NCBI GenBank assembly: GCA_051294905.1
Contig: CM119372.1
Location: 27,406,001-27,470,000 of the forward strand
Direction of reading: 5' to 3'
Origin: Botryllus schlosseri
Taxonomy: Eukaryota
Length of the DNA stretch: 64,000 bases
The first letter of the stretch is position 1; each line of letters begins with the position of its first letter. Of this stretch, positions 11,687 to 45,717 are shown piece after piece. The notes under the pieces were generated by a model. It saw only the letters and a list, made by a program, of their open reading frames with translations, was not told the DNA's origin and ran no database searches. A program made the translations under genes and the position numbers.

Positions 11687-12333
11687 GGCATTTTCATTAT
11701 CCGAGATTAGCACCATTGCTGTTACGCAACAAATGACAGCGAAAACATGGTATTCATGTTATTTCAGTGGTTCAAAAGGAACAATGAAAGCATACAATGC
11801 GCCCACGCTGTCTTATTAACAACTTGTATTATTAGTTTTTGTTAATTTGACATGCTCTCTCGATGCGGTGTTGAAAGCCATGGTTTTTGGGTGGTCTGCA
11901 CAATTTGTTGACACCGCATCTCGTTGATTACCACAGTGGGAAAGATGTGAAATGATGGCGTGTCAAGATCTGATAGGCTAGACTTTCGTCCGTAGATTGA
12001 TTGATTGAATTTGAATTACGTTAATAGAATACCGCGAAGCGTTCCGCACCTTTGCCACTATACCCATTAAAAGACATATATTTCATTACTTACCGTGAAA
12101 ATACCCACAATAATTATAGTCTGCGGATAGGATGAGGCTCCCTGCTACATGTAGCCCAAACGATTGGCTTCAACTTTGCAGTCAATACAATATTTATAAT
12201 TATTCCTGGACTTAATAGATGAAGGATTGAATTATTGTCGTATTATTCCGTTTTGCTCAATCTTTTCTCCGTTTCGTTTGGTCTAGAGTAGACAGCGAAA
12301 ATATTAATTGGTTTAGAGTACTGGATAGTAACT

Positions 12334-13365
12334 ATGACAGAAACGACTTGGCAAGTGACGCATGGTGGCCTGTCGACGACAATGGTGACTGGACTGAACA
12401 CGGCGTATGTCTCCCAGCATACATCGACTGACGATTTTCCAACAGGCGGACTGGAGGCTATTAACATTATCATTCTGCCGGCAACAACTTGGACGATAGC
12501 AAACCTGCTTGCGTACGGAAGGGCGGAAAGGAAATTTAAAATAAACACCGACGACGGACGGCTGTACATACTTTGCGCCATTTCACTGACTTTGGGATTA
12601 AGTCGATTATTTGTGGATATTGCCATGTTTCATGTTGAGTTAACTCCTACAACATGCGAAGTAATGGCTGATGCGAGCGCTGTTTTAGAAGGCGTCGCGT
12701 TATTTCCGGTGTTTATATTTCTGTGGTATCGCCAATACGCCATATCTACCAATCCAATTGTACAACCATTCGTACCCAAGACGGTTAAATTCATAAGCTT
12801 GTTCGTACTGCTGGATATCATAGCTTCAACGATTATATTGTTCTTCATAAACGTTGTCCCAGTCTGTCACAATATGTTGCCTTAATACGGATGTTCCGAA
12901 ACCTCACAGTACGAGAGTTCCTCAAATCGGAAATTTTATTTTTTGCCGATAATAACTATTTCATTCCTATTGTTTGGTCAAGTTTTACTGTTATTCCTCT
13001 TTGTCTATCCAATTTACGTCATGAAGAAGAAACATAGTCGATGTGTTCGCTTCCGAGAACGTAACGACGACTCAACTTTAAAAAAGGCTAAGAGATGCTT
13101 GATTTGTTTCGTGATCGTGATATTGACTGACATTGGCGTAACCGTCTTCAATATTCTACCCTGGTTTCCCCCTACTCATACCGCTCAAGCCACTTTAAAG
13201 AACCTTGATATATGGATTAATCAGGTCACAATTTTAGCAACGTTCAATTGCTTCGGGACTTTAATGCGCTATTTAGTATACCGTCGCAGACAGACCAATA
13301 GACAAGCAAACGAAGGAATTGGCAACGAAGGGGTAGCAGGGACGCCACTGGTCGGTACACTGTAA
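12334..13365 (+). pseudogene. Intronless 7TM/GPCR-like membrane protein (343 codons) with one in-frame TAA at 12883-12885
   Basis: ORFs 12334-12885 and 12943-13365 are in the same frame and the gap between them is open (YGCSETSQY...). About 7 hydrophobic segments, Cys before TM3 (TTCEV) and in ECL2, FLWYRQ at the end of TM3. Confidence 0.75.
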
Positions 13366-17404: not shown

Positions 17405-20400
17405 AAGAGATGAGTTCTGCTGTTCGCACCAAACTTGGTAAAATCTGGGACTAATTTAAAAATAAAGTTTTGGAATAAAGGCGATGTTGTGATTTATGTC
17501 AACGTGGATTATGAAGATTTAATTTAGATGTTGTGCGCATCGAAGTCGTTTGACGAAGATATCCGGATAGGATGAGGTGGTATCTGGATAGGCTGATGAG
17601 GGGGTTTACTGATAGCATAGGGGAGGAAAATTTTCCACCTGACATAGGTGGGGGAGCCCACCACCCTTTACGGGTGGAGAAAATACCACCTCCTTTGGGT
17701 GATTTTTGAAACACCTCTGTAAGGTGGCCACAGTTTTTACAGTGTAGGACGTGATTTTCATCATATCATTATTCTCGCGTATCGCGGTAATGTGTTGTAT
17801 TTGTATGGATAGAATATGAAGTGTTAAATCTATCTGATGCCAAATGGACTTAAATTTACTATGTACCAATCTTAAGATGATTCGAGTGAACTTTTACGTA
17901 TGACTACGCAAACTGTATTGACTGCACTCCTACTTGACGTTTCAGAAATACGGAATAACTCGTGACTCTGAGCAAAATTTTATGAGTTAATATTATTATT
18001 ATTATGCTACATGTAAGTCAGCGAATGATGCTTACTAAACCAATCAATTATATCAGTGTTTCCCAAACTTTTTTGTCAGCGCCCCCGACCCCCTCACCAT
18101 GCCTTAATCATAAAACGGAAGTTGTTCTGCATTTATTACAGCTAATAATGAGACGGATGAAGCTGGTATATTATTATCATCATTCTCGTCATATTGGGTT
18201 TGAGTTTTGATTGTAAAATCTCCAGTCTCCACGTCCTGTACTGTCAAGTCGGTTTCTGCTGTGGGTCAGAAACCTGGTCACGACCCTGAAAACACGTTCT
18301 ATAATGAGCGCGGAAGGACAACGACGAAAAAGTCACCCCGACTCCGTGATAGTATTTCTACATGCTTTAAATGTGTATAAGGAACGATTGCTTTGGGTTG
18401 AGCTCAAAATTATTCTATACTACCATATAATCAGCTCATCAATCATTTCATGCTCGGAAACTTCACAGAATGGATTGATTACCCGGTAAGGAGTTTCTAA
18501 TTGGACTATATCCTGGAATCAAGTCAGCATATCCTCGTGCAGTTTTCCGAGATGATTGAATTAGGTTTCTCCATCAAAATCAGGTATTCGAGCAGGACCG
18601 GTGGCTAATGAAAGCTTGAGAATTGCAACAGTTCTTGTCGCAAAATCTCGGTGAAATATCACGGGCTTATCACTGAATTCGGACAGGGTCATTTTCACCG
18701 TTATCAGCTTCATCATTTCTGAGAACGGATATATTCTGCTCATAAATTTTTGAAAATGTGCGCCTCAAGTAGAAACGATACTGTTTTTCGCAACCAGAAC
18801 GCCGTGTCGAAGGCCACGGTGGCAGCTCATTGGAAAATTCACGGTCGTTTGAAATCAATTAAAATCACGCAATACAGTTTCTCTTAAAAAGCTATACACG
18901 TTGCAGTGAGCAATAACTGCTCAAATACTTCGTAGTTTTCACAGCGAACCACACTTTATAGGGATTCTGCCGACTGCTAAATTAGTCCATTGAGGGGCAG
19001 GATCAACATTTTCATGTAAAAATGGACTTTTCCGGTATAGCTGACTAAATGGACTGTGTATGTAGCTGCCAGGGCTGTGGAGTCGGAGTCGGAGTCGGTG
19101 GAGTCGGAGTCGGAGTCTGGTTAATTTTTGCTTGATGGAGTCGGAGTCGGAGTCGGAGTCGTGAAAACTGTAGTGGCTGGAGTCGGAGTCGGAGTCGGAG
19201 TCGAGAAAAAAATACTGACTGGAGTCGGAGTCGGAGTTTGTGAAAATGACCCTGACTTCGACTCCGACTCCGACTCCAACTTCTTTATCATGAAAACAAT
19301 TGCATTCAGAGGTATCTTTAAATTACTAATATTACCTATAATAGGATTTTTATGTACCATCAATACTGTTAATAGTAACGATACAGATCAGGAGCGGCCA
19401 AACCGTGCCCTCCAGGCCAAATGAGGTTTTGTATGGCCTGAGAGGTAATTCTCCAAATTAGATAAAACACCAGGTAAAATTTCAAGGCCAACCAAAATCT
19501 GATTAGCCTGACTGCGAAATTTGATGATGACTATAAAACATCAGTTTCGAGTGGTTTAGCCCTTGTTGACGTAAAATTCACAAATTTTAGGCTGCCTACA
19601 ACCGACAGGTGAGACTTGCAGTAGTTCCAGATAAAATTCGGCATTAAAAGCACGAACCGCTGAAGTAGTTCTTCACGACCACAGGTACAGTGTTGCCCCA
19701 AGACGCCGTTGTTAGGCCACGCAGGGGGATCGCTTTTAATGTGATGGTGCCTCATCGAAAAAGGTCTATTATAGTTCAATCGCGATCTTAATCGGTTTGT
19801 TCAATATACCTTGCTCCCCGGAATTAGCCCTAAGTTATCCCACATTTTTCTTTCCGATAATCGTCAATTTCAATGCGGGAGAGGTAAAAGCCTGACTATC
19901 GACTAATTCAGTAATCTATGTCTTTGTTATTTATTTCGTCTGTTTTGTTCCAAGATATTAATCATCCACAAACATAGCATTTGCGTTTTTCATAACTGTA
20001 GTTCCGAACAATAACAGCGCCGTGTTTCGTGTGATCCCAAAAATTGTTGATCGAAGAGAAGCTCTAGGTTAAAATGCTTCATCCAGTTGGGAAGGAGGGG
20101 AACGGGGAGGCAGCAACTTCGTGATCCCAGAAATGGTGTACCGCCGAAGCAAGTACTATACTTAGCCTAGGCCCAGGTGAGTTTCGACACCTCTAGTAGG
20201 CTACATCTTTTCATTATATCTTGTGATTTATTGATTCGATAAAATTAATAATGATAATAAACTCCTCCAGTGCACAGATTGCTGTAACCAACATAGCCTC
20301 AATTTCAGTGAACATTAGGCAATTCTAGCTTCATCTGAATAAGGACCCATGGATTTCTTGTTCCTCTCGTTCAATGATCTCATTTATTTGATCACTTCTG

Positions 20401-21429
20401 CAGAGATCGCTACCCCATATTACTGCACATAGCTGACATATCCTTACTTTCGTTTGCTGGGATTTATTTAAATACGCCGAAACAATGAATACGTAGAATA
20501 ACCATAAGATGGCTGCAGCAGTGCCTTTTGATATGTCACATGATGCTGAATTTTCTCTATCTGCGATTATCACAGCCACCACGTAGTTGACAGTTATAGC
20601 ATTCACATCATCACCATTGCAGTGAGAAGATTTTGAATCCAGGCTAGGGAAATTCCGAGGCAGGCTCCGATAATAACTACAAGTTGGCGAGTAGTGCACT
20701 CCAGTGTTTATATAGCTCAGTGGTTAGTACTGGAAAGACAACCCGAATCATTATTATTATTATTTAGACTTGTGACCAGAGGTTAAACGTTTTACCAGTT
20801 TTGTTGTGTAACAATGAAATTCATATCGCACTGACGACAACGTTCATAACGTGACCAAAGGGAAATAGTTTCGTTAACTACGGTAGGGGTAGATAATATT
20901 GTAGGAGCATGTAATATAGAATGAGGTGAGAAGTCGAGTCGAACGCGTTTTGCCTGTAGGTGGTAGAAATATATCTATGGGTTAAAAATATTACCGGTAA
21001 ATATCTCTCATGGACGCGTTACTGGACACAATGTATTCTTGTAGTTAGACAGGGGTAGTGAAAGCAGTGTACGCCGGTACTGTAGCGTGTAGGGTGAGTC
21101 TGTGCCTCCTATATGTTTTTTTGCTTTGTTGATTGTAAACTCGACATTGATATGTAGACTTCAGGATAGACCAAATTATTACGCTATGAGATGTATTCTT
21201 GTCTGACTATAGAGTAGCAGGAGTGTTGTTGTGCCAGATATCGACTAAATTGTATCGTTTTGATTTCATATTTTCACTATATAGCTATGTAGAGAGTAGG
21301 CCATAAAACCTATCCCAGCGAATCTGCCATAGCGTGATTTTCCATGTATAATATGCACCCTGAAATGACTTGTAGATTCTGGGGGAAAGCCTGTACGCTT
21401 GTATAGCATAGTATAGTACGCACCATATA

Positions 21430-21690
21430 GCCGACAAGATAACGTAATGGTGAAGCGTCCGGCTTCTTGATCAGTGAGTCTGGGGTTCGATTCCTGACCG
21501 GTTCACACCAAAGACCTGATTAGTAACACTGGTATCCACAACCTCTCTACTTGGCGCTCATGCATTAATGGAATAGCATGGATGGACGGGTGGTGCAAGA
21601 CGTAGATAGCCGTAAAATGCTATATCTGTACCTTGCTCGTTTAGCGGAATATCCACTCATGAGTCGGTGTATATGCCGCATAAACATCAA
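21430..21690 (+). mobile_element. tRNA-derived SINE
   Basis: A-box-like TAACGTAATGG, B box GGTTCGATTCC (21484-21494), then ACACCAAAGAC...CTTGGCGCTCA.GCATTA, which resembles a widespread metazoan SINE core. Confidence 0.7.
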
Positions 21691-22157
21691 AGACAAAAAT
21701 TAACCACGTCCTTTACTTCCCTACCCTGCATCCACAGTAGTCTACATGAATAGTAAACTCGTAAATGCCGATTATACAAGCTTCTAGTGTTGACGAACTG
21801 GTGCGTATGATATAGGTTACCAGCAATGGTAATGTTTCAGTATTGTTGTAGACATGCATAATGTGCAGTGTGAACCCAAAATTCAGTAACATTTTGCGCA
21901 TTATACCGGGAAAATCACGGTCCTAATATATTTTCAAATGGCCTATGTTATGACAAGATTGCAGCCATGATAGAGTCAAACTATTCCAATGTTTGACCTA
22001 TTTATATTTTGGGTGCTCTTTATTGTTTCTTAGAACATGATTGTGTATGATGTGAATGCACTTCATTGTTTCTTTGAACATGATTGTCATATTAGGCTTT
22101 TCGAAGTACAGAACTTCAATATTGCAGCAAACAATACATTCATATTGTTAAATTTAT

Positions 22158-22197
22158 TCCACTGGAAGCTTTTCGACTGGCTCTCTTCAGCAGTGAA
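22158..22197 (-). ncRNA. Minimal type I hammerhead ribozyme motif (antisense copy)
   Basis: Exact reverse complement of 22295-22334. Confidence 0.7.
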
Positions 22198-22294
22198 CGC
22201 CAGTAAATGAGGTTAACCAAGTACTTGTCATTATTACGTCACAACGACAAAATTCTTTCTGTATTTCGAACTTGGTTAACCTCATTTACTGGCG

Positions 22295-22334
22295 TTCACT
22301 GCTGAAGAGAGCCAGTCGAAAAGCTTCCAGTGGA
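22295..22334 (+). ncRNA. Minimal type I hammerhead ribozyme motif
   Basis: TTCACTG-CTGAAGA-GA(GCCAG)TC-GAAA-AGCT-TC^-CAGTGGA: stem I, both core boxes, short stem II, palindromic AAGCTT stem III. Predicted cleavage after C22327. Confidence 0.72.
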
Positions 22335-22476
22335 ATAAATTTAATAATATGAACGTATTGTTTGCTGCAAGATTGTCATATTGTGTATCATTGGTTTGTT
22401 CTTGAATTTCCAGACAAATCTCATAACTTTGAGCATCGCTATTTAGAATTCACATCGAATAGTATAGACCTTCCTG

Positions 22477-24471
22477 ATGAGCGCAAAGAATCCACTGAAA
22501 TCCAGTGCACACGACTATTTCATTTTAAGTGAAGATGGCGGAAATTATATATGTCAATGTGAAATTGACATAGGAAGAATATGTGGAACCAAAATAAGTA
22601 GTTTTGGTGGTAAAGATAAGAATGCTGCTCCAACTAGAACATTCAATCTCAAAAGGCATTTGGCACGTAGTCATCCTGAAATCATGATAATAGTTGAAGA
22701 AAAAGACAAAAGACATGCTGCAACAACAGCATCAGGAATTCAGCGACCAACCAAATCTAGTGACGCCCGAAAGTCTATATCAAGCTTCTTCAAATCAGAC
22801 AAAGTTACAATTACAATGACTGCAGATAATTTCAAGAAACATCTAATTGATTTAGTTGTGCAAAACGGACTACCTTTGCGGTTGTTTAGTCAACCGGCTT
22901 TCCAAGGAATATCTGGTGAAATGGCTACGAAGCTTGGGGTCTCTTTGGATAGACAGAATGTCCGTAACATTATCATCGAAGAGGCAAAAAGTAAAAAAGA
23001 AGCTATCACAAAAACTCTGCAAAATAAGTTTGTCTTTTTGAAAATGGATGCAGCAACACGACACAGAGTTAATTACTTCGCAATAAATGTAAGGTTTGTT
23101 AATGATAGTAATCAAACCATTACTGAAACTCTTGCTGTCAAAGACACCAAAGCTCATCATGAAAGCGTTTATCTCCAGAGCTTAATCGAAGATGTTTTGA
23201 AGGAATTCGAAATAAAAAAATCACAAGTTCTCTGCATTGTTACTGATAATGCATCCAATATGGTAAAGACAATTGAAAGATTGAATGAAGCAAATCAATT
23301 TGATAGTGACACAGCCATGGATGTTGTTGATAGTGATAGTAATAGTACTGAAGGAGATAGCATAGTAGAGCATGAGATGGAAGAATTGGATCACCCTGAT
23401 GAAGTAATTGATGATATTCTTGAAGAGTCGTCGAAGCTTTCCTTGATAAAACACATGCGATGTGCGGTGCACACTTTACAGTTGGCAATTAGAGATGGTT
23501 TGAAAGAAAAGCGCACTGCTTCATTAATTAGCAAGATCAGGCAAATAGTGACAGCATGCAGAACTCCTAAGATTGGAGCAATTTTGAAGAGGAGGTTGGG
23601 AAAAGGAGCTTTGATTGACCAGGTGACTCGCTGGGGGAGTACTTATATGATGGTCAGAAGGTTACTGGAGTTGAAAACATCATTGGAGGATTTAGATAAT
23701 CCTAATGTGGTGCTTAGTACAGCACAATGGAGTGAGGTTGAAAACTTAGAGCGTGCGCTTTCACTTCCCTTTTTAGTCACAAAAAAACTACAAACAGAAG
23801 ATTTGACAGCAGGTGCTTTCGTGTACGAATGGAAAAACCTTGCCTTTCAACTTGGCCAATTGGGAGGATCGGTTGCAAATGGCATCACATCATCTATGGC
23901 AAAAAGGGAAGCCCTACTTTTTGAGAACGATCTGCTTCTGGCTGCTGTGTTCGTAGATCCAAGGAACAGGGTGCTCTTAACTCCTGATCAAATGATTCAA
24001 GCCAAAGCTGCTTTGTGCGACATTGCCACGAGAATGAGAGGATTGTTGCCAGAGGATCTCCAGCAAACTCAAGACAATTTAGCAGATGCAGAATGCCATT
24101 CTTCATCAAGTAATGACGAAACAAGTTTTGAAAAGTATTTAGATCGAAGGGAAAAAGATCTGGCCAAACGAAAGCGCGTTGAGAAAACTGCACCGGTCAA
24201 TGTCCAGTTGGCAGCTTTTAAAAAACTGTTCAACACTGCACTGGAAGAAATTGAGAAATACGATAGAACATGCAAGATGCCACTTCATGAACTAATTGAT
24301 ATTTACCCTGATGAAATCAGGAGTGTGGCAACAATTGTCACTGCATTGCCACCGACTCAAGTCAGTGTGGAAAGGCTCTTTTCAGCATTGAAGTTGATCA
24401 AATCTGATCTAAGGTCATCGATGAAAGAAGATCTTGCAGAGGCAATCTTGTTTCTCAGAAATGTAAATTGA
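22477..24471 (+). CDS. hAT-superfamily DDE transposase, 664 aa, uninterrupted
   Basis: BED-like zinc finger (C..C...NLKRHL.RSH), catalytic motifs KMDAAT and VTDNASNM, CxxH (RCAVH), TRWGST, and C-terminal dimerisation motif VSVERLFS. Confidence 0.95.
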   Translation: MSAKNPLKSSAHDYFILSEDGGNYICQCEIDIGRICGTKISSFGGKDKNAAPTRTFNLKRHLARSHPEIMIIVEEKDKRHAATTASGIQRPTKSSDARKSISSFFKSDKVTITMTADNFKKHLIDLVVQNGLPLRLFSQPAFQGISGEMATKLGVSLDRQNVRNIIIEEAKSKKEAITKTLQNKFVFLKMDAATRHRVNYFAINVRFVNDSNQTITETLAVKDTKAHHESVYLQSLIEDVLKEFEIKKSQVLCIVTDNASNMVKTIERLNEANQFDSDTAMDVVDSDSNSTEGDSIVEHEMEELDHPDEVIDDILEESSKLSLIKHMRCAVHTLQLAIRDGLKEKRTASLISKIRQIVTACRTPKIGAILKRRLGKGALIDQVTRWGSTYMMVRRLLELKTSLEDLDNPNVVLSTAQWSEVENLERALSLPFLVTKKLQTEDLTAGAFVYEWKNLAFQLGQLGGSVANGITSSMAKREALLFENDLLLAAVFVDPRNRVLLTPDQMIQAKAALCDIATRMRGLLPEDLQQTQDNLADAECHSSSSNDETSFEKYLDRREKDLAKRKRVEKTAPVNVQLAAFKKLFNTALEEIEKYDRTCKMPLHELIDIYPDEIRSVATIVTALPPTQVSVERLFSALKLIKSDLRSSMKEDLAEAILFLRNVN

Positions 24472-25152
24472 ATGAATATAATTGGGCCTGCCAATAATAA
24501 TCAACAATCCGCAAACATTTGTCACTGCAATTTTGATTTGATAGCAATTCGTTTGGGTATGAGTGAGAACATTTCATTGATATTGAGAACAAAGCTTAGT
24601 GATCGCTCGAAGAGTGAAATAATGCCATAACCATGTCTTTATGGAATACTGCAAAGTTGGAATCAATAATTCGGACATAGGTTGGCAGATAATATTATTA
24701 ACTAAGTGATGTAGTAACAGTATCATTTTCTTGAGTCGATTCATAGGAATGTTGGAGTCGGAGTCGGGAGTCGGAGTCGTGTAAGAAAAATAGTTGGAGT
24801 CGGAGTCGGAGTTGGAGTCGGTGCGTTTTAAGATTCAGGAGTCGGAGTCGGAGTTGGAGTCGGACTATTGGAAATGTCTGGAGTCGGAGTCGGAGTTGGA
24901 GTCGGTGGTAAAATTCACCGACTCCACAGCCCTGGTAGCTGCTTTATTCATCAATCGTTTCATCACTATGCAGCATTTGCCTTTTACACCTACACCCCCC
25001 CCCCCCATTTGCGCTCTCTCTCTTGCTCTCTCTCCACCTCCACCGAGTTTTATAGCCGGCGCCCCCAATCGTCCATCGCCCATCTCCCCCTTCACTATCG
25101 CGAACGCCCCCAGGGGGCGCTGGTGCCCACTTTGGGCGTCACTGAATTATAT

Positions 25153-25873: not shown

Positions 25874-26796
25874 CAGTGTTGGGATGACGTTTTCATATGG
25901 CTTGACTTGACTCGAGTCACTTTGCAAAAATGATTTGACTTGACTTTAGTTGACTCGGCGCTTCAAAAATGTCAATTGACTCGTGACTCGGAGCAAAACT
26001 TACGAGTCAATTTCACGTCATCAAGTAAACGGTGTCGATAAAATCACCCTATCTTATGTACGTTCGGATTGTTCGCGATACGCCGATGTCACTTGAGAGG
26101 GCAACCAGTAATTCACTGATTGTAAAGGAAACGATCACGGCTTCCGTTGTCGTAGTAGTAGTAGATTAATCTAATAGCAACGTATCTTTGTTTTTTTAAC
26201 GGCTCGGTGCTTACATTACGCAGTGCTCACCTTTACCAATCCACTTGTATAATTTAAATCGGACGAACATAATTTATGCGTTTATATTCTCTCAGATAAG
26301 TAGATGGGTAGTGTAGGCTACTGTACCATATCAACTTGTTTCGACTTCTCGAGGCTTCGTATGCGATTCTGCATTTTGGTTGATAATGACAGACTGTAGC
26401 ATGAAGCTATACGCAGCAGTTACTCACGTATTTTACTAGCATTCCAAGTATGCGCGAGCGATACAACGTCTTTTTGCATTCGCATTTAACTTTATATTTG
26501 CTAGTTCATTCGACGCAAATGGCCAATTAATCTGTCTTTCGTCCAGTTTTAGTGATGATGCAAACTCACTACATATTGCTACTTCGAAAATCCAATTTGA
26601 CTTGCATCGTGACTTGACTCGTGACTTGACTTGACTCGACTCGACTTGACTTGACTCGAGTCACCGCGAAAAACAAGTGACTTGACTTGACTCGAGTCAC
26701 CTTTGAATATCGATTGACTTGACTTGACTCGAGTCAAAATGTGCAATGACTCGAGATGACTCGTAACTGGAAGGTAGTGACTTGATCCCAACACTG
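25874..26796. mobile_element. hAT-like MITE with TGACT/GACTCGAGTC subterminal repeats
   Basis: Ends CAGTGTTGGGAT...ATCCCAACACTG. No matching TSD seen. Confidence 0.65.
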
Positions 26797-28022
26797 TTGA
26801 TCTTTAATTTCAGACCACATCATATTTAAAGTGCAGTGCCTCTGGTGCTTTTCTGCTGTTTTGTTGTACACCAGACAATTTTAAATTTGACCATCCAATC
26901 GATCAATTGGGTTATTCGTGTGACTACCGCCAATTCAATAACATGTTGAATAGTGTATTGAAATCCGCTTTTCTGCAACTACAAAGGCTGTACCATATCA
27001 ACGAATACTTTTCTGCGCCTATGTTTTGACATAGTACGTACTTTATTTTGGCAATTCGGCGTATTCACGGTACTACATGGTTTTGTAGATTAACCTGTGA
27101 TAGCCTGACATCCAAATTTTTCATATTGACATATTGACTGTTTTTAATAACGGGAGAATCCGGAACAACCTCGTGCCAAGAACCATAAATCACTGTCGCG
27201 CTTCGGTGGTTCAACAAAGACGATGTCACAGTTCGATAATTGTAACTAGCTTTCGGCGTTTTTGGCGGAGGTATGTTGAACAGTGAAGATGGCAGTACGC
27301 TTGATTCCGATAAATACCGATGGATCTCAATTGACGGCGCGTGGAATCACCAATCGGCTTCATTTAACAATCTAATCATTGATCGGGAGACTGCTACCAA
27401 GCAAGGTTGGGCGGCACCCCGTAAATAGCCGCTTAGCATCAAACGAGCCTTAATAGATTCCACCTTTTTTGAAATAGCAGAAGTTAGTATCATCTTAAAT
27501 CTATGATCCCGAGTCCTTGAATTTATAATTGTTTTCATACGTGGTAGAACGGTGGCGGCATGAAATAAAATCCAACACAAAAACAGGAGGAGCCTTATGA
27601 TCTCATAAATGATACTGATTTTTGAGGAATTTTACTCAACGCACATCAACTTCGTAGGTGAAGTTTTCGTTGTTAAGTGCTTGAATGTCAGGCCTGTTTA
27701 ACAGTTTGACGGCTAAAATATTAATGTTTTTCCGAGGCCCCGCAGCGTTAGCTTTTGATCTTCGAATACAATTCAAAATGATACATATGAACCGTTATAT
27801 CATATCTATTTGTAGAATTTCTTTTTCTGGTATGGATGACAAATTCAGTCTGACGAAAAATCCGATATTATGGGTATGTTGCAGCATACTTGCCTCCCCT
27901 CACCCGGGTTGTAACCAAGTCACATGGTTCCGAGTCACGAGTCCATCTTGCTTTGGTGGTTTTGACTCGAGTCCAGTCGAGTCATTTTCAATTCATCACC
28001 AAGTCCAAGTCATCGTTTAAAG

Positions 28023-30337: not shown

Positions 30338-30598
30338 TCAAATCAATGAGTTACACTTCAAAAATAATAAAGTGGAAAGGAGATCCTCGGATATGTTAAA
30401 GCGGCATGGCCTTAGAATAAATCCACATCTACTGAATACAAGTTCTACTGGTGCACTAGATGCAGGAAGCGACAAGCATTTTTGAACCACACTGAAGAGC
30501 ATTAGATACTCATTCTTTCTAGTCGTCCAAAAATGCAAAGAATCATCGCCTTCAAATCTACACATGAGCTTATCAGTCTCTTCGAAGTACTTGGCCAT
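30338..30598 (-). pseudogene. hAT transposase C-terminal dimerisation domain remnant
   Basis: LHFW...YLML...CLSLPASSAPVELVFS...LLFLKCN. Confidence 0.85.
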
Positions 30599-32931
30599 CT
30601 GAGTTATTTCATTGGCTCTAATTGAACTTTGCTTCGATTGTTTGCTTGTATATTTGAAAAGTCTTGAGTCGGCTACTTTGATTGCGGAGGATCTATTACT
30701 TCTTCATCACTGGATGATTTTGTACAATGCATGCTATTATGTACCATGGTCTGTTGTTTTTACGGTGGTATATCTGATATCAGACGAGTGAAACGAAAGC
30801 AGTGATGACAAATAGCGATATCGGCAGAATTCGTCAGATGCGTTGATTCAACCATTACGATTCGCAAATTTCTTTATCTTCAAGTCATATAAAATAAGCC
30901 GAGTCAATGACTTGGGTCGAGTCATGCGTAATGACTCGAGTACAAGTCGAGTCAATCCAAATATTGACTCGAGTCGAGTCATTTTCCAATTTCAAGTGAC
31001 TCGAGTCAAGTCGAGTCACAGAAAAATCGGGACTCGAGTCTGACTCGAGTCGAGTCATGACTCAAGTCATTACAACACTGCCCCTCACCCCACGTTACCG
31101 GATTGATGTACCATAAACAGGAATTGGATGGGCGGATAAATCAAATGATAAATCAAAGGAGCTCAGGTACAGTAACGACGCATCATTGTAGACTTTATTG
31201 ATAACATCAGCAAATGTGCATTCGTTATTTTGCAAGTAAGAAGCGATAACCTGGATATCTGTTAAGATGGCAAACTGAATCAGGGATATCCAACCTGCGG
31301 CCCACCAGCTCGCTAGTAGTTTTCAATCCAACTAGTAATTTGAACTTATAATCTCAGCCTTTAAAATGTGCCAGTCATCTTCTCCGTCCTCCTTTTTATT
31401 TCTCATGCGTGATTGATGACGAAATTGAGATTGTTGCGCGATAATGCCTCCAGAGACTGGTTGAATGAGGCTATACAGAGTGCCGAGTGCAAGTTACGAC
31501 ATTTGTTTTCTTGTTTTCATAATGCTGTGTTGGTGACAGTTGTTATTTTCAAATGCAACTTTTTGCTGCAACTATTCGTAAAATTAGGTACAACAAAAAT
31601 TATAGGCTCAATATGATTCGTTTCTTGGCAAATTAAACGATGTTACATCTTCTTCTAAATTCAACATTGAAAAAGGAAATGGAAATTTTTGTATGTATTC
31701 GTTGAGAACATGGATAATAATTTTGTTACATCCGTCTATCGTAAGGCTGTATTCAGTGGCGAGTAGCCTCAATGGAATTCATTTTGCCGTAAAATCAATT
31801 TGACAAGACAGCTTGTACACCGGACCCCAAGTAGCACCCTATGGAGCACCAAAGACCAACTTTTTTGGAGGGGAGGGGATGACGAAGTACTGTTTCGGTA
31901 TTGCAGCTGTATACCGGGAATATTCATTACTCTGGCAACACAATTTTGTTGACCATTATCAGACAATTGATTTTGACTAATATTTGGCGCTGAATTAAAA
32001 AATGACGCCCGTTTTTCTCTATCACGTCAATTTTTTGGGTTAGGCACCCGCCACATTGTCCCATAACCCACATAATAGCACTACCTTTAATATTTGTATT
32101 TATTGTATAAAATGTTTCAAAAACCACAAGCAATCGAAAGTAAATCAATAGACTTCAAATAAACATTTGCACCGCTTTATTTGGATGATTTAAACTGATA
32201 TTGCTTCTACAGGACCGATAAAGTGCGAGTTTCAGGGTCCAAATTTACGCTAATAACACATAATTCTGTAGGTTGTCTAGTTTGATACTCGAGAAATAGA
32301 CAGCCAACATATGTAAGCTCCAATCTACTCTGGTATCTCAGCCCCATCATCTTCAGATGTTGGGGGATGTTTTCTCCTTTCCCATTTCTGACTATGTCAA
32401 GGTTTTCAGGGAAATTATTTAGATATTTTAGCTTTTTGAATGTCTGCTGTCCGACACAAACACATGGCAGTGACACATGTGTATCAGGGTTATTACATGT
32501 GCATTGTGCATCCTTGTAGTCTGGCCACTAAGAAAACAGGATATTTGAAAGTTGACACATATGATCCAATCGTGCTCGTGATATTGCAACAATTTAATGT
32601 TTCTGTATTATTCACGCAGACTAACTGAGTGTGCAATTGATAATGCACCCAAAACGTTGCGACTTTGGAGAATGCCACACTTTAGGATCTTTTTTGAGTT
32701 ACCTATAGGCATTTGCCATTCACTTGAGTTGTAAATCGGGATTCCTAGCCCACCAGTAATCCATGGTAACATTATCTGGCCAATGGCAGTATCACAGCAA
32801 TGCACAAAGCTACCGATTGTAGGCCTACGAAGAAAAGGCTGTTTCTCGTGATCGAAAGTGAGATATCTTCTCTATCTTGCCAACTAATCCTTTCTCACTT
32901 CGTAAGGATGGTGAAAGTCCAAAGATTTCTC

Positions 32932-35039: not shown

Positions 35040-36974
35040 TTAATGTAACGACAAGAGGTGATCAAGTAGGGCTTTTTTGAATCTATCATAAGGCAATTCA
35101 CGGATATGTGGTGGTAATGCATTCCAGATGATAGGTCCCGAGTAGTCGATAGATCTCTTAGTAAGGTTGCTATTGGGTGGGGGTAAGTAGATATTTCCTT
35201 TAGACGAGGATCTCGTGTAATGGGAGTGGACATTTTTAGCAGGCACGAAAAAGTCATCAAACACAGGATGCAAACTTTCGGAAAAATGTTTGTGAATGAC
35301 TTTTGATGCTTCGAAGCGATATAGTTTGTCAACTTGCAAAATTCGGTGCTTACGGTAGTAAGGCGATAGTTTGGTGCGTAAATGTACAGATGAGATCAGC
35401 AGTATTGCACGGTTTTGCAGGAATCTAATTCTGCACAAAAATGTTGTGCATGCACTTCCCCATACTACGATTCCATATTGCAGGTGAGAGTGGAAAAGAG
35501 AGAAATATATGGTTCGTAGTATTGATCTGGGAACCAAATATTGCAGACGGGTCATTATTCCCACACACCGAGCTAGTTTCGATATTGTGCATTCAATATG
35601 CTGCTTCCAAGACATTTTGGCATCAATGGTGACGCCGAGGTATTTTGCTGAGTCACATATGGAGATTTGTTTATGATTCATGTTCACAGTGTAACTATGA
35701 TTGGCATTATTCAAAAGGAGCATCTCGGTCTTATCGGCATTCAAACTTAAGTTGCTTGCTTGCAGCCATCTTGACACTTTTGAGAGTTCCCTATTCACGG
35801 ATGCATGCGAATCATCGACAGTGTTGGAGGTTATGATTATGAAGAGGTGAGTATCATCAGCAAATAGGGTTGTGCGGAATAAAGATGCATTAACAATGTC
35901 GTTAATATAAATGAGGAAAAAGTCGGTCCAAGGACTGAGCCTTGTGGCACTCCACAAGTTATATCTCTGGTGGTCGTTCTTAATGTCCCCAGTTTAACAA
36001 ATTGTTTGCGGTTTGCCAGGTAGCTTTCAAGTAGAGTTGCTGCAATACCCCTGATTCCATAGTGTTCTAGATTGTATCTTAAGATTCTGTGGTTAAATGT
36101 GTCGAAAGCTTTGCGGAGGTCGATAAAAATGCCGCAGCCATTTTGTTTTGCTTGGTGGTTTTGTAATAGTCCGTTACAATTGATGATATTGCATGGTTGG
36201 TGCTGTGGCTTGATCTGAATCCATGCTGAGTCGGAGACAGTACTGCATTCAATTCCAAAAAAATTCTTGAGTCGGCAGTCAATCAGTTTCTCAAAAACCG
36301 TGGCAAGATTTTGCAAAACAGATATTGATCGGTAGTTAGAAATTAGCTTTTTACAGCCTTTCTTAAACACTGGCATTACCCTTGCAGTTTTCAGTGCATC
36401 AGGGAAAATGCCTATAGACGTATCGACACATTAAAGAAAATGCATATAACATCACCAATAATATTAAAGACTAGCTTCAGAAAGTGAGTTGGGATGAGAT
36501 CGGGCCCTACTGCTTTGTTACTTTTCATTTCAGATAATATGATAGCAACTTCTCCATTACTTGTCGGCTCAAGAAAAATGGATTTCTGAGGGCCAGGACT
36601 CAAGTACGAGAGAAAGTCATTGCAGGAGTTTGGTATTGAAGCTGCAAGATCCGGACCAATGTTGCAAAAATACTGATTGAAATTTTCTGCTACTGCAAGC
36701 TGGTCCTTGATCATGCTGCCATTCTCGAGGAGCTCGATGTCAACAGCACTCTTGGGAGCATTACCTTTAGTTAGGTTGACACTTTCTCCAATGGTTTTCC
36801 ATGTGTTCTTGGGATCTTTGGAGCACTCTTCGAATCTTTTGTGGAAGTATGCCTTTTTGGCATTTTCTTTCATATGTGTCACTTGGTTTGCATATATTTT
36901 GTACAGTTTTTTGCCTTCGCTTGTGCCTTGCAGATAGTAGTGCTTATGCATCCAATCCCTTATTTTGATCGCAA
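35040..36974 (-). pseudogene. LINE ORF2 reverse transcriptase region (frameshifted)
   Basis: NYRSISVL, QHGFR, FIDLRKAFDT, GVPQGSVLGP, LFADDT and KYLGVTID spread over several frames. Confidence 0.92.
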
Positions 36975-36994
36975 CTAGTAAGTAGTATAGTCGA

Positions 36995-37330
36995 TCGCTC
37001 GTGACGGGCTATGGGGCTCTTATGGGCGGGGTGGTGACGCGCCTGAAAATCGGGGGTGGTGATGCGCCTTTTTAGACCCCCCTTGCGGCGGTGATGCGCC
37101 ATGTGTTCTTATGGGTGCGGTCGTGATTCGCCTTTTCGGCTATAGGCTGCGGCGGTGACGCGCCAGAAAACCCGGGGTGGTGACTCGCCTTTTTTGCTAT
37201 AGGTGGTGGCGGTGAGTCGTATTTCATGTATTCTTACAGGGTCTCTGCTGATTCACCATGTGTTCTTATGGGCGTGGCGGTGATTCGTACTTTCGAGTAT
37301 AGGCATCTCTCGCGTGGTGTTGAATATGTA
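36995..37330. repeat. GC-rich subterminal motif array GGTGA(C/T)(G/T)CGCC, mirrored at about 51785-52120
   Basis: About 10 copies of the motif, plus recurring ATGTGTTCTTATGGG. Confidence 0.75.
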
Positions 37331-40300
37331 CGAGTCACCAACAATAACCGCGCAAACGGAAACGCTGTTTGTTGTGAGAATTAAGCAGTGCGACCTATAT
37401 TTCGAATGACCTGCGCGCTGAATTGTTGCCCATACAGCTGTGTGCTACTATCGTATCGATTATTACACTAATCCAGTCAGTGCGAAATAGTTTGCTAAAT
37501 CTAGGAATCACTTCCAAGGTAATATTTTGGTAATTAGTTTACCGCAGAGCCGGCGTAGTCGGCGATTCGAATATCAACAATAACCGCGTTCACAAACTAA
37601 CACTTCAAAAATGTGTGAAATAGTTTGCAAAACCCCGCGATCTCTGACAAGATAATGACTCGGGTGACATGATAACGTTACAGGTATAGGCTGAGGTGGT
37701 GATTCGCCATGTGTTCTTATGGGTGCGCTCGCACGTCGTACTTTCAAGTATAGGTATCTCTCGCATGTCGTATTGGAAACTCGTGTTGGCTCGCTCACGC
37801 GGTGAAATTTTAGTAATCAGTTTGTCGCAGAACTTGATTTCACTCATAAGATTTAATAAGTAACGAATAACAGACCGCCAGTGTCGGTAACTTGAATAGC
37901 GACAAATCGTCACTTATTTCCGCTCTAAGCCTAATCCTTTGTGAAGTGAACGCTTATTCAAAAGGTTGTGATATAATTTCAAAATCCAACGACCACTCAC
38001 CGGATAATGCTGCAGACATAGCACTCTCTCATGCCCGCTCACAAGGTAATATTTCGGTAATTAGTTTGTCACAGAACCGTCGCAGACGGTGTGATTCAAA
38101 ACCAGCAATTTGTCACTTGCCCGCGATCGCTATATGTTTTGACACTTCAGAAGAGTGGTTGACTTTAGTTGCGTGATACAAATCATGAGAATATTCAATC
38201 AATGCGTCAATTTGTCAACTCGAAATGAAACTCACTACACAGTTCAAGTTGATTCGTATCTGAATGTGTTAATTCGGTACAATTCTAATTATTTTGAGAA
38301 ATCTTTTCGTGATCTTTTGATTCGACTGCAACCTGAATATTACTGACACCGACTTTCAGTCACATCGAATTATTCGCACACTCCGCGCCGTCGTTTTCAT
38401 AGCTATAGAATCAATACCAACTATAACTCTACAAGAATCAAGAATCACAAGTATGTGCATTATACAGTTATTGTCTTTATCAACATGAAATCAAACTCTT
38501 AACAAAAACACGCAACTAATCATTTGGCAACTCTAGCATTACCAAAAAATTCCAGTATTGTTGATTGAAAATCCTTGAGTCATTATTATCAAAAATGTTA
38601 AAGTACCGCATCGGAATCCATTCGCGGGATGTACTAAAGGTAAATCCAGATAATCCAAAATGAAATATTTGGACTTTGACAAACATGACTACCAACTTTG
38701 ATCCAGTCACATTTCAAGATTACACTTTGAAACAATCCTTGAAACTTACAACTCTATTCACGACTGAGTTTTCCGTTTATCAGTTTCAGTAAATACTATC
38801 GCGATATTTTAATGTGTTACTACGCACAATCGAATCAATCAATGAAATAGCACCTGTTGTAAATATTTCTAACTTGACAACCACTTATGCATACCGCGAT
38901 CGACTTGTGACGCGATGAGTTAAATCGGAATATTTCAATCTATTTTTCGAAACCTTGAACAAGCTATCAGGTTTTTTTTTTTGTAATCGAGTGAACGGAA
39001 ATAGTATTACGTCTCAACATTTTACCATCTTCCCATAAACAAAAGAGTAAAATACAAAAAACCTTGTCAAGTCAATCCGTTTGTAACTTACCCAACCAAA
39101 GCAAAAAGTATCCTTATGAAAAGTAGACAAGACTACGCCAGTAATCACCACAATCCAAAATCCATAGCAAGTTCGGTTGTATTCATAGTCCACCAACTCG
39201 TATTTTTATTCAACTGTAAAAGTCGTTACTACTCTGCTAGACAAAAAAAAATTACTATGTGGTATATTTTGTAAGACAAAAGTAATTACTTCTCGGTGTC
39301 AGCGACTTGAGATTAACATATGTTTTGAGTATATGATATTTGAATGTCTGACCAACGTAGTTAAGAATTCATTTCTTACGACCGAACACCGGTATTACAT
39401 TGAAAGTTATCATGCTGTAAACATAAGGATTGACACATGGATTTGACATATGTAATAGTTGATCATGACTTGATTATTAAATTATTCGCGTTAATTAGAC
39501 CCGGTGTTGCGGTAAAGGTTATTATGACAACAACAAACTTTTCACCACCGTGGTTATCAACATATTGATTTGTAAAACTATACTTGTCTGAAATGTTCTT
39601 GGTTTGAAAGATATTCCGTGTTGGTACAAATCACTCTGTGTATTACGGATATCAGAAAATATTTTTACAAATGTAGTTGTTTCCAGTAACCAAGACTAAA
39701 GACGACACAACAATTTCGTTTGGAATATTTTTATTGGACGCATCCTATTCTACTAGACTTGAGTAATACACAAAACTCATAGCATTAACAAAATCGCAAT
39801 AGGCGCTACACTGAAATCTACAAAATGTGTTTGTATTGTTACTCAAAGTAGTGATCATAAATTATCATTTAAATAAGTAATTGTAATCATAAAACCAAAC
39901 TTGTGAAAGTCATTACCATAACAAAAGAATATTGTAGGTTGCTTGCTAAATGTATGCCGGAAATATTTGTAGAACGCTCACGACCAAAGAAATCGGGAAT
40001 TTCTCCCCATTGTCATTCGTCAAAGTATATGTTGTCACAATACTCATCCCGTCAAAGATCTTACTTGTATGTGATTGAATCGCCGGTAATTAACTCGCTA
40101 AATCAAACCATAGGGAAATTTCACTCAGTCATCGGATATGAAACAGCGTCGCTTAATCGGCGTAGAGCGTTTTTCTAAATGCAAATCATACCTGACCAAC
40201 AGAAAACAATTTTCACTCACCTTGTAATGAAACCAAGCGGTGGGTCTTCGTTCAATATTTTGTCTGTGGCAAATACTTTGCAATAAACACACACACTGGA

Positions 40301-41914
40301 TTGGTTGAGCTTTACATCATCAAGCTGTCATCTGTAAATCGAGATCACATCCGACTTGTAACTGTATCGTTTACCTAACCGAGTTGTATGCACAGTTTGA
40401 TATTTTTCTCATTTAGTGATTGCTGAACATACCAAACGATACACATTCACTTCCGAAATACTGCGTTGATCTCAATTCCCTTTGTCCTGATAATCGAAGT
40501 ACTTTTGTTTTGAATTCATAACAATAGGCTTTTCTACGACATGATAAATTATTGACAAGTTCTGCTTAGAAGATTGGTTGCATATCACGAAAAATAAGAT
40601 ACCACACATATTATTACTGTTACTCCATTCATCGGTATTTTTTCCGTTGTCGATTTTCAAACGAGTAAAATTTATTACTTGAGTTGCTCTGCTTACTATA
40701 TTTAAATGTAAACTCGCCCGTCTTTCAACAACAAACAATGTTAAAAAAGTATGCAATCAAACACAACAAGTTTTACGATACTAATTATTATCCCACATAA
40801 CCCATTTCTTACCGAAGACATATGAAATATAATCATGTTACACGAAAATATTCGCTCATGCTACAAACCTGTACAATGATTGGTGGTGCTTTCAAACTGT
40901 TTCGATACCTCAAGAACTTTATTGTCTGAATGGTTGTTCATGTATCGTAATAATCAAGTAGTTCAACACAGAACTAGTATTAACAGAAACACCAGAGTTG
41001 TTTACACAAAAGTTTGTATGTGTACAGTATGCGAATACCATGTGTAAGTCCAGCACAATTGTGGTATCCATACGAGTTTAGTTAACACAATTTACGACAC
41101 CGAGGTCGCCTCATCTTTCGTAAGACAACAAACCAAGGCTTCAGGATATGTCCATGTCATAACAATAAATCAGCTACTCCAACAACAGAGTACATATGTT
41201 TTCTAGTTACGGTGCTTACATCTTACACACAAATCGACCTACTTTGCTAACGAAAAGCGCTGAGTCATCACAACAATACAACTAAAACATACTATCATAC
41301 AAATTGGTCGTTATAGTTTGCCCACCAACGATACATCGTACAAGTAGCAAGTCTCGAGAATCCAGTTATTCAAAAAAAAAAACGTGAAAGTGTTTCTACA
41401 CCAAGTCGGTATGTTGACGAAAGCATATATTGTAATATCATGATCGATTTACATTCGTTGGTCACAAAATGTCACTACTCTAAATAATTATTTTTCACTC
41501 AAAGCCTACTTGTCACCATTCGTTTCATCAAGCACGAGTTCAAGAAACCTGCTACGACATGAATTGTTATTTTTATGTTGTGTAAATAGGTAATAATTAA
41601 TTTTAGTAACACTATATCAACATCATCGAGTTGTGCGAATAGATTTACATGTGGTCTCGTGGTTTTAATCGAAGTATACAGCGCGGTCTAATGTAGAGTC
41701 ATCTCTATTGTACAACAACTCGGTAATCGAAATGCATTAAAATTTAAACAACAATCTTGGTTCGTCGCACCAAAAATATGTTTACTATCACGATACTCTA
41801 CACAGGTCGTGTAAATTCTTTTCACACTCGTAATAGTATACCAACAGCTACCGGTGACAACGTTTAACAATACCAACGACACTAAAAAAACGACACCTAC
41901 CCAAATAAAATTAC

Positions 41915-42590
41915 CATTTTCACCTGGAGATCGGTCGTTACCCGAGTAGAAATACCATTGTCCTTTGGAGATTTATCGTTTACCCAGTGTAACAAACCCC
42001 TTATCCTTTGGAAATCTATTTTTTCTCTGGGTAACAAACCTTTTTCACTTGGAAATATATTTTTCTCTGGTTAACAAACCTTTTTCACTTGGAAATATAT
42101 TTTTTCTCTGGTTAACAAACCTTTTTCACTTGGAAATATATGTTTTCCCTCAACAACAAACGTTTTTCACTTGGAAATATATTTTTTCCCTGGGTAACAA
42201 TCTTTTTTCACTTGGAAATCTATTTTTTCCCCGGGTAACAATCCTTTTTCACTTGGAAATCTATTTTTTTCCCTGGGTAACAAACCTTTTTCGCTTGGAA
42301 ATATATTTTTTCCTTGAGCAACAGACCATTTTTACTTGGAAATATATTTTTTCCTTGAGCAACAGACCATTTTCACTTGGAAATATATTTTTTCCCTGAG
42401 CAACAAACCATTTCACTCGGCGGGTCGTCGTTTACCTGAGTAAAATATCATTTTTCTTTGGAGATCTGGCGTTTACCCATTGTAACAATACATTTTCACT
42501 TGGAAATCTGTCGTTTACCTGAGTACCAATACCGTTTTCACTTGGAAATCTATCTTTTCCCTGGGTAACAATACCCTTTTCGTTTTGAAA
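41915..42590 (+). repeat. 40-41-bp minisatellite in the left arm
   Basis: About 15 units of the form AAACCTTTTTCACTTGGAAATATATTTTTTCYCTGGGTAAC. Confidence 0.9.
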
Positions 42591-43894
42591 ACTGACAACC
42601 ACACTGGTCAATTTGATATTTTTTTGTATATTGTTACAACAGACAGCGACAAAATATACACCAACAACGACTCCGATACATTTGTCTAATAAAATATATT
42701 CACTTGCTCTGATGCATCCCATCAAAATCATTGGTTACTCACATACAATAACAATGTGCTGTTGTACATCGACATGTATGTTTTCGGAATTGGCGAATAA
42801 AGGGGTTTCCGATATGTCCGTGATGTCCGGGTTTGTGCTTTGGATTTTCCAGAGTCAAAATGTCTGAATAAAACACCTCCTCGACTTTGGTAACTGGTTG
42901 ATACACGGATATTGGTGTTCGGAAAACGGATGAATTTATGTTCCCCATCGCGCTGACAACATCGGGTTACTTGTGAGTTTCCTCGGGTCTGTTTACTATA
43001 TTGTGTCTTTACTGGTCAATACATGTCGCTCCAGTCAGCTGAAACCGGATCACCAATATGAGAAAGTGTGGGGGCCTGATCCGGATATTCACTCATGAAC
43101 CAACGACCAATATTCAAGTAAACATGTTACAGACCGTGTTTTGTCTCCATGAAAAATACCAATGCATACACCATCACATACAAGTAACGTCACGATTGTT
43201 CACAAGTATTCGCGTAAACGAGGTGTACATACAATGTGTCGGTGTACAAACATCATGGAAAACAAATTCATGTTCTCAAGTCTCATCATGCGACGACTCT
43301 GTACATTCAATGTGGGCATAGATGACTTGGGGACAGACAAGCAGCTATATTTGGACGTAACACGATCTTAGTATGAACCGCCTTCACCCAACTTGTGAAA
43401 AATGCATCTCACACGAGTACAACCCTTTCACGGGTTCACACCTTGATTTTACAAGATTGTTCGGATTCTCAGGTAGACTTGCATCGTGATCCAGACCTCG
43501 ACATATAGTAAAATCGGGTTGCGTAACTCGCTCAATCCCCGCGTATTGTTGGTCATAACCTGTGAACTTTTTTGCTGAGACTGCAGTGTTTCACCTGGCA
43601 TAATGTATTTGGCGATCACCCTCGTTATCAGTCTTTCACGCGATGAATATGTCAGATGTCGCTACTCCCACATAACGACTACAGATAAACATCGTGAGCA
43701 GTGACTCTGGATTGAAATCGTAAACAGGGATTATGTGTGTGTGTGAAGCTCGAGTTCGATTACGATTAGATAATGTAATCCAAGGTGTGTCTCTGTGAGT
43801 TGAAGTCTTATTTCGTGTTAATCACACCGCAAGAGGGTGCTATCTCGTAATTCTACAGGTCAACATAAACCGCGAATGGAAACTTTTGGTCTAG

Positions 43895-44254: not shown

Positions 44255-45041
44255 CTGAGAATATATCGGTATGCATAGTGCGCTGTCCATTGTATCATGC
44301 CGTGTGTCATCTATGCCCACATTGAATGTACAGAGTCGTCGCATGATGAGACTTGAGAACATGAATTTGTTTTCCATGATGTTTGTACACCGACACATTG
44401 TATGTACACCTCGTTTACGCGAATACTTGTGAACAATCGTGACGTTACTTGTATGTGATGGTGTATGCATTGGTATTTTTCATGGAGACAAAACACGGTC
44501 TGTAACATGTTTACTTGAATATTGGTCGTTGGTTCATGAGTGAATATCCGGATCAGGCCCCCACACTTTCTCATATTGGTGATCCGGTTTCAGCTGACTG
44601 GAGCGACATGTATTGACCAGTAAAGACACAATATAGTAAACAGACCCGAGGAAACTCACAAGTAACCCGATGTTGTCAGCGCGATGGGGAACATAAATTC
44701 ATCCGTTTTCCGAACACCATTATCCGTGTATCAACCAGTTACCAAAGTCGAGGAGGTGTTTTATTCAGACATTTTGACTCTGGAAAATCCAAAGCACAAA
44801 CCCGGACATCACGGACATATCGGAAACCCCTTTATTCGCCAATTCCGAAAACATACATGTCGATGTACAACAGCACATTGTTATTGTATGTGAGTAACCA
44901 ATGATTTTGATGGGATGCATCAGAGCAAGTGAATATATTTTATTAGACAAATGTATCGGAGTCGTTGTTGGTGTATATTTTGTCGCTGTCTGTTGTAACA
45001 ATATACAAAAAAATATCAAATTGACCAGTGTGGTTGTCAGT

Positions 45042-45717
45042 TTTCAAAACGAAAAGGGTATTGTTACCCAGGGAAAAGATAGATTTCCAAGTGAAAACGG
45101 TATTGGTACTCAGGTAAACGACAGATTTCCAAGTGAAAATGTATTGTTACAATGGGTAAACGCCAGATCTCCAAAGAAAAATGATATTTTACTCAGGTAA
45201 ACGACGACCCGCCGAGTGAAATGGTTTGTTGCTCAGGGAAAAAATATATTTCCAAGTGAAAATGGTCTGTTGCTCAAGGAAAAAATATATTTCCAAGTAA
45301 AAATGGTCTGTTGCTCAAGGAAAAAATATATTTCCAAGCGAAAAAGGTTTGTTACCCAGGGAAAAAAATAGATTTCCAAGTGAAAAAGGATTGTTACCCG
45401 GGGAAAAAATAGATTTCCAAGTGAAAAAAGATTGTTACCCAGGGAAAAAATATATTTCCAAGTGAAAAACGTTTGTTGTTGAGGGAAAACATATATTTCC
45501 AAGTGAAAAAGGTTTGTTAACCAGAGAAAAAATATATTTCCAAGTGAAAAAGGTTTGTTAACCAGAGAAAAATATATTTCCAAGTGAAAAAGGTTTGTTA
45601 CCCAGAGAAAAAATAGATTTCCAAAGGATAAGGGGTTTGTTACACTGGGTAAACGATAAATCTCCAAAGGACAATGGTATTTCTACTCGGGTAACGACCG
45701 ATCTCCAGGTGAAAATG
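45042..45717 (-). repeat. Mirror copy of the 40-41-bp minisatellite in the right arm
   Basis: Reverse complement of 41915-42590. Confidence 0.9.

Follow-up and report, generated by a model that had tools for sequence, protein, structure and literature searches.

A hairpin with opposed hammerhead motifs in the 5′ region of a hAT transposon is probably a truncated Penelope-like element insertion

The hairpin that lies upstream of a hAT transposase in the window (the whole 64-kb stretch of DNA that was analysed) is very probably an insertion that was dead on arrival and came from a high-copy family of Penelope-like retroelements (PLEs), placed there by the sequence of events proposed below. The insert is 277 bp long; it is inert as a retroelement and most likely neutral for the hAT. 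We infer its PLE parentage from its structure, the parts of which are as follows.

22082–22093, unstranded: left copy of the putative target-site duplication of the PLE insert (exact repeat).
22094–22121, minus strand: putative PLE tail of 28 bp that only the inverted copy has and that carries the ORF start on to codon 16.
22122–22222, minus strand: left arm, read as an inverted 5′-truncated pLTR copy.
22218–22227, unstranded: 10-bp palindrome at the inversion junction, with a 5-nt microhomology to 22270–22274 (base inspection).
22223–22370, plus strand: 47-nt loop and right arm, read as a direct 5′-truncated pLTR copy without tail.
22371–22382, unstranded: right copy of the putative target-site duplication, 12 bp (exact repeat).
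22096–22143, minus strand: putative first 16 PLE ORF codons (arm and tail), with 11 of 16 residues common to the fragment 5403–5356.

The two arms of the inverted repeat (22122–22222 and 22270–22370) pair at 99 of 101 positions, with mismatches at 22138/22354 and 22147/22345, and the calculated folding energy of the full hairpin is −183.5 kcal/mol. The arms and the 12-bp direct repeat that flanks the insert had been described in an earlier sequence-only reading, and both were recovered exactly. A common 12-mer between two random 50-nt stretches of the window arises in about five of 10 000 draws. Because the exact repeat stands at both sides, the insert is delimited as 22094–22370. The insert is asymmetric, the extension at 22094–22121 being found on the left arm only, and this tail contains a 7-bp stem-loop. 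Part of the tail (22100–22113) also matches the loop (22257–22270) at 13 of 14 positions, as a direct repeat in the orientation of the putative PLE itself.

Each arm contains an ATG-started frame, which remains open for 16 codons through the left arm and tail (minus strand) and for seven codons in the right arm. When the longer frame is compared with the minus-strand fragment at 5403–5356, seven codons are identical, four are synonymous and five are changed, with no indel; the match scores 61, against 25 at most for unrelated frames of the window. As this match is rich in synonymous changes, the first codons of a protein-coding frame stand at the end of the arm. The fragment itself is a second, diverged PLE-like ORF start, and hammerhead descriptors detect no intact hammerhead upstream of it. 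In structural terms, the insert has a type I hammerhead in the putative pLTR, first ORF codons that lie in the pLTR and are extended by the tail, a head-to-head inverted 5′-truncated copy, a junction palindrome, variable truncation among copies and a short target duplication. The extension, found at one end only, is counted as a PLE tail at 28 bp, slightly below the published range of about 30–40 bp. The earlier proposal of a Penelope-type pLTR origin with inverted insertion gains support from the tail, the ORF start, the junction palindrome and the target duplication.

A hammerhead descriptor run over the whole window returned exactly two sites, one in each arm and on opposite strands, as had been claimed, and the same descriptor returned no site in 30 of 30 shuffled windows.

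22160–22195, minus strand: putative minimal type I hammerhead of the inverted copy (descriptor and weak RF00163 match).
22297–22332, plus strand: putative minimal type I hammerhead of the direct copy, with a predicted cut after C22327 (descriptor and weak RF00163 match).

The Rfam comparison suggested earlier had a divided outcome: Hammerhead_1 (RF00163) matches both arms, but at 16.6 bits (E of 1.5) it falls short of the gathering score of 34, and a scan of the entire 64-kb window at gathering thresholds gave no matches. Lower-scoring Rfam matches to miRNA and sRNA families were set aside, since any long hairpin yields them. The plus-strand motif consists of a stem I of 5–7 bp, a CUGAAGA core, a stem II of 2 bp, GAAA and a palindromic stem III. 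All of the conserved core (C3–A9, G12–A14, U16.1 and H17) and the G10.1–C11.1 pair are present (22302–22327). Position 17 corresponds to C22327, in agreement with the cut site predicted previously, and is followed by an AATAAA at 22334 that is part of the repeat and present in both arms. Stem III (22321–22326) is its own reverse complement, giving the palindromic 15.2–16.2 positions and loop 3 of minimal PLE hammerheads; that class also has a long helix II and an additional base after position 9, before 10.1, and both are absent here, the 2-bp stem II following directly after A9. Just 5′ of stem I, six nucleotides (22288–22293) are complementary to loop II (22311–22316). The chance of such complementarity within 15 nt is about 0.002 for six nucleotides and 0.007 for five, and the pairing is a possible ribozyme pseudoknot. 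Contacts of this sort are common in hammerheads. The exact 30-nt ribozyme pattern had no match among metagenome contigs. Within the hairpin family, a hammerhead with a short stem II and a possible pseudoknot is available in many natural variants; this hammerhead family may already stand in the supplements of PMC4209133.

The probability of stem I computed with ViennaRNA is about 1e-48 to 1e-49 within the full hairpin, so that the long stem is predicted to mask the ribozyme, as the sequence-only reading had anticipated. It is only about 1e-5 to 1e-6 even when the left arm is removed. Because ViennaRNA disfavours the isolated motif too, it is a poor model of this ribozyme, and we draw only on the difference between the two values.

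Contigs or reads of four sequencing runs (X1, X3, X4 and X21), out of 24 found, were compared with 19300–24740. The coverage of X4, a run of undefined kind, is not counted as expression, and X21 (raw RNA under another organism label, of which about 12/100 was read) contributed one read to the region. The two insert bins stand at 546x and 575x (X1, X3) and at 24x (X4) the median summed contig depth of the ten ORF bins, a measure that is not equal to copy number but differs greatly between insert and ORF. Among the 18 listed of 1040 rows, loose ends before 22093 comprise 66 X1 contigs (agreement 0.43) and nine X4 contigs (0.49) with dissimilar flanks, and upstream of 22221 there are 53 X3 contigs that go on in common sequence (0.63). 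Four of the 12 listed joints with letters between (of 33) link 22125, 22133, 22148 or 22150 to 22221/2, and these four pass through the common sequence upstream of 22221; they are copies with shorter inverted arms, no second hammerhead and a less truncated direct copy. The hairpin is a dispersed and abundant high-copy family of its own, with variable arm lengths. As arm length varies among copies, the two back-to-back ribozymes are an accident of the inversion point of this copy.

The high depth and the sharp common end at 22093/4 could also come from a fixed 277-bp unit spreading as a fold-back or retrozyme-like element, self-contained and non-autonomous. We give this explanation almost no credence, as the arms are neither terminal nor symmetric (the tail is one-sided), the inversion point differs in other copies, which also reach upstream of 22221, and the insert has none of the head-to-tail tandem units that retrozymes need (bioRxiv 10.64898/2026.07.22.740005). 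Two specific classes were rejected on similar grounds: a MITE or fold-back DNA element, given the one-sided tail and the variation in arm length between copies, and a non-LTR retrozyme, given two copies on opposite strands only and no head-to-tail tandem.

The insertion of a truncated PLE would have proceeded as follows. The first step would have been a nick, made by the endonuclease of the parent PLE at an AT-rich site in the non-coding 5′ part of the hAT, probably within a 5′-UTR intron. Reverse transcription would have begun near the PLE ORF start and copied about 150 nt of the pLTR, and a switch at the 5-nt microhomology would have given an inverted second copy ending 28 nt deeper in the ORF, which is the tail; repair would have left the 12-bp duplication. 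The one ribozyme of the pLTR would thereby have been duplicated, once on each strand, to give both hammerheads; should the region be intronic, splicing would take out the hairpin.

The host element and the features adjoining the insert are as follows.

19062–19069 and 24935–24942: 8-bp hAT target duplication, exact.
19070–24934, plus strand: host hAT element with 17-bp terminal inverted repeats and GGAGTC subterminal arrays.
19300–22029, unstranded: 5′ non-coding region of the hAT with further nested high-copy repeats (from depth).
22349–22405, plus strand: putative PLE start codon and seven codons running into hAT DNA, which gives an upstream ORF of 18 codons in a different frame from the transposase.
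22408–22413, plus strand: candidate splice acceptor, with 63 nt between it and the transposase ATG.
22477–24471, plus strand: hAT transposase ORF of 664 aa, open in this copy.

Membership of the hAT superfamily follows from the terminal inverted repeats, the 8-bp target duplication and the transposase, the ORF of which carries the hAT dimerisation domain PF05699 (24.8 bits; cut-off 21.4). The best relatives of the transposase are 55% identical and come from frogs, a termite and other animal contigs. The end of the insert is 107 nt from the ATG at 22477, which bears out the earlier placement of the hairpin about 100 bp upstream of an intact transposase. The hairpin is one of about five high-copy repeats within the 3.4-kb 5′ region, where depth peaks occur in the bins 19300–19663, 20210–20755, 21302–21847 and 21848–22029, and joints in X1 skip parts of this region (20138 to 20391 and 21362 to 21760). 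A SINE-like repeat of very high copy occupies 21431–21760, with a sharp start at 21431; one X1 joint skips it, and it is nested in an older inverted-repeat element (21333–21357 and 21895–21919). Further repeats are found at 19384–19690 (83% match to 2773–2896) and 20210–20755.

Among the transposase ORF variants of other runs are a stop (codon 320), indels that shift the frame and changes affecting the conserved His61 and His66, and hence there is no sign of tight maintenance of the hAT family. Nine of the 15 best-supported ORF substitutions (among the 40 listed of 277 variant rows) alter the protein, one of them to a stop, and a domesticated transposase was rejected for this reason.

At the locus itself, the X3 pieces 21720–22118 and 22346–22546 cross from the hAT flank into the insert on both sides at flank-level depth, and the X4 piece 21533–22122 does so on the left; each reaches 25–29 letters into the insert, less than the 31 letters of the bridging rule. 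No empty-site joint is present among the 15 listed of 75 joints. Taken together, these pieces and joints indicate that the insert is probably common to other individuals and not private to one.

The sequence-only reading had proposed that the hairpin is a built-in attenuator of the transposase. An attenuator that evolved across the family, with hammerheads that cleave the transposase pre-mRNA or an AATAAA that polyadenylates it, would be in keeping with the intact core, palindromic stem III and possible pseudoknot, with the AATAAA at 22334 and with the lack of an empty site among those 15 of 75 joints. We consider it very unlikely on the following evidence. A plus-strand transcript contains only the right motif in the sense orientation, and its full complement, the left arm, is transcribed first. 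Cleavage in a hAT transcript is unlikely, since the sole sense ribozyme would be paired to the antisense arm transcribed ahead of it (stem I at about 1e-48 once the left arm is transcribed). Minimal PLE hammerheads were inactive as monomers and weak as dimers in PMC4209133, with weak or no cleavage as dimer or monomer likewise described in PMC6765202, and cleavage by the hammerhead of an Anolis PLE is protein-dependent (PMC11167929). The single sense motif per transcript counts against self-cleavage of the pre-mRNA, and the AATAAA, being part of the repeat and present in both arms, counts against early polyadenylation as a means of attenuation.

Related hAT loci argue in the same direction. 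From 80 loci gathered, 34 had a match starting in the first 34 residues, and after four with less than 300 nt upstream were dropped, 30 loci remained, which are 34–57% identical and partly redundant. A hammerhead was found within up to 1 kb upstream of the transposase in none of the 30, whereas the positive control recovered both motifs; three of the 30 have an upstream inverted repeat of at least 20 bp. BLASTN searches with the insert and the hAT 5′ region gave no match to the 80 related loci. With a dispersed family of variable arm length and no upstream hammerhead in the 30 relatives, the attenuator proposal is not supported. As for the suggested siRNA source, siRNAs from the stem would match the PLE family and not the transposase coding sequence.

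The candidate acceptor lies 43 nt beyond the end of the insert. Of the 11 related hAT loci inspected, seven have an acceptor-like hexamer 50–71 nt before the start. They fall into two sequence groups (L001, L008 and L012; L031, L033, L041 and L071), and the site hints at a 5′-UTR intron in this hAT clade. A consensus donor is found at 20175, one of four on the plus strand. The site, reconstructed computationally without the insert, aligns marginally with the upstream regions of seven related loci: the score is reached by 13, 13 and 28 of 500 shuffles for L008, L001 and L012, respectively, and by 42 to 458 of 500 for the other four. Around the candidate donor there is no similarity to related loci (66 and 53 of 100 shuffles reach the score). 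A 5′-UTR intron that holds the hairpin is plausible; it would account for the tolerance of so many repeats and would strip the hairpin from the mRNA. The intronic position suggested earlier is weakly favoured by the acceptor-like sites.

Two further readings accept a PLE origin and differ on its consequence. In the first, the insert alters the expression of this one hAT locus through dsRNA in the pre-mRNA, disturbance of the splice site, or a pLTR promoter with the 18-codon upstream ORF. The short distances to the candidate acceptor (43 nt) and the ATG (107 nt), a hairpin of −183.5 kcal/mol that offers a 100-bp dsRNA target, the flank-to-insert pieces in two other samples and the intact ORF, terminal repeats and target duplication of this copy are all consistent with such an effect. 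Promoter capture is kept as an alternative because a pLTR of D. virilis can drive downstream genes (PMC2377424) and the right arm points into the transposase. We nevertheless regard a local effect as unlikely, since the pLTR is represented by about 150 nt only, at least four other repeats are tolerated in the same 5′ region, the stop, frameshift and His61/His66 variants of other runs give no sign of tight maintenance, and any siRNAs that the stem yields would have no match in the coding sequence. The second reading, that a PLE pLTR fragment was captured by an intact hAT, is now part of its expression control and travels with it, seems to us quite improbable. Were it true, the fragment would sit in a 5′-UTR intron just before the acceptor and would either provide a promoter in the sense orientation, coupled to an upstream ORF in another frame, or serve as a dsRNA target, the latter placing a DNA transposon under small-RNA surveillance aimed at an abundant retroelement. 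If the insert measurably controls the transposase, one transposon class would be regulated by another through a captured ribozyme repeat; a literature search turned up no paper that brings together a hAT transposon, its transposase and a hammerhead ribozyme. As it stands, the locus carries little weight as one more truncated PLE insertion, although it is a tidy example, with tail, ORF start, junction palindrome and target duplication within 277 bp.

Several other features were observed elsewhere in the window. A giant inverted duplication (36981–43326 and 44306–52134) is near-perfect, with one mismatch in a 4355-bp core arm and a 979-bp spacer, and has an extra 1487-bp tandem unit on the right and 41-bp arrays inside; it is either a very recent duplication or an assembly artefact. 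A broken LINE-type reverse transcriptase (35040–37008, minus strand; Pfam RVT_1, E of 1e-5) ends at the edge of this palindrome. Another repeat (25897–27995) carries GACTTGACTCGA arrays at each of its ends; a C-terminal fragment of a hAT stands apart from it at 30338–30703. At 12292–13365 (plus strand), hydrophobic in-line frames of 197 and 159 aa with one stop between them resemble a multi-pass membrane receptor; a Pfam search of the 197-aa frame gave no match.

The insert resembles the insertions of endonuclease-bearing PLEs (Arkhipova et al., 2013, PMC3846280; Craig et al., 2021, PMC8557442) in its 5′-truncated pLTR, head-to-head inverted copy and one-copy tail, as well as in the ORF start in pLTR and tail, the junction palindrome, the target-site duplication and the location inside another transposon. 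[quoted passage not shown] The tail is ascribed in PMC11167929 to two internal starts of reverse transcription, and targets are AT-rich. The present insert differs from canonical PLE insertions in its extreme truncation, with no ORF body and no parental ORF for a telomerase-like RT and a GIY-YIG endonuclease in evidence, in its tail (28 bp versus 30–40 bp) and in its target-site duplication (12 bp versus 8–10 bp in the rotifer examples).

The motifs are similar to metazoan PLE hammerheads (Cervera and De la Pena, 2014, PMC4209133) in the CUGANGA and GAAA core, the G10.1–C11.1 pair, the short stem I, the palindromic stem III and the occurrence as opposite-strand pairs 100–700 bp apart; that paper ascribes such pairs of minimal hammerheads to truncated PLEs. 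They differ in the 2-bp stem II, the lack of a bulge between positions 9 and 10.1 and the complementarity of loop II to the six nucleotides before stem I. The non-LTR retrozymes (bioRxiv 10.64898/2026.07.22.740005) are, like the insert, short PLE-related repeats that are non-coding and contain a type I hammerhead; the insert is not a head-to-tail tandem, and it has a tail and an ORF start. Like Mu killer of maize (PMC3440606), it is an inverted repeat beside transposon sequence which, if transcribed, could be a source of siRNAs, but the Mu killer hairpin consists of transposase and terminal-repeat sequence, whereas the hairpin here is of unrelated, putatively PLE, sequence. The host element resembles the GGAGTC-array hATs of frog, termite and other animals in its terminal repeats, 8-bp target duplication, dimerisation domain and long 5′ region, which is 3.4 kb with about five nested repeats here and 1.8 kb in the related locus L008.
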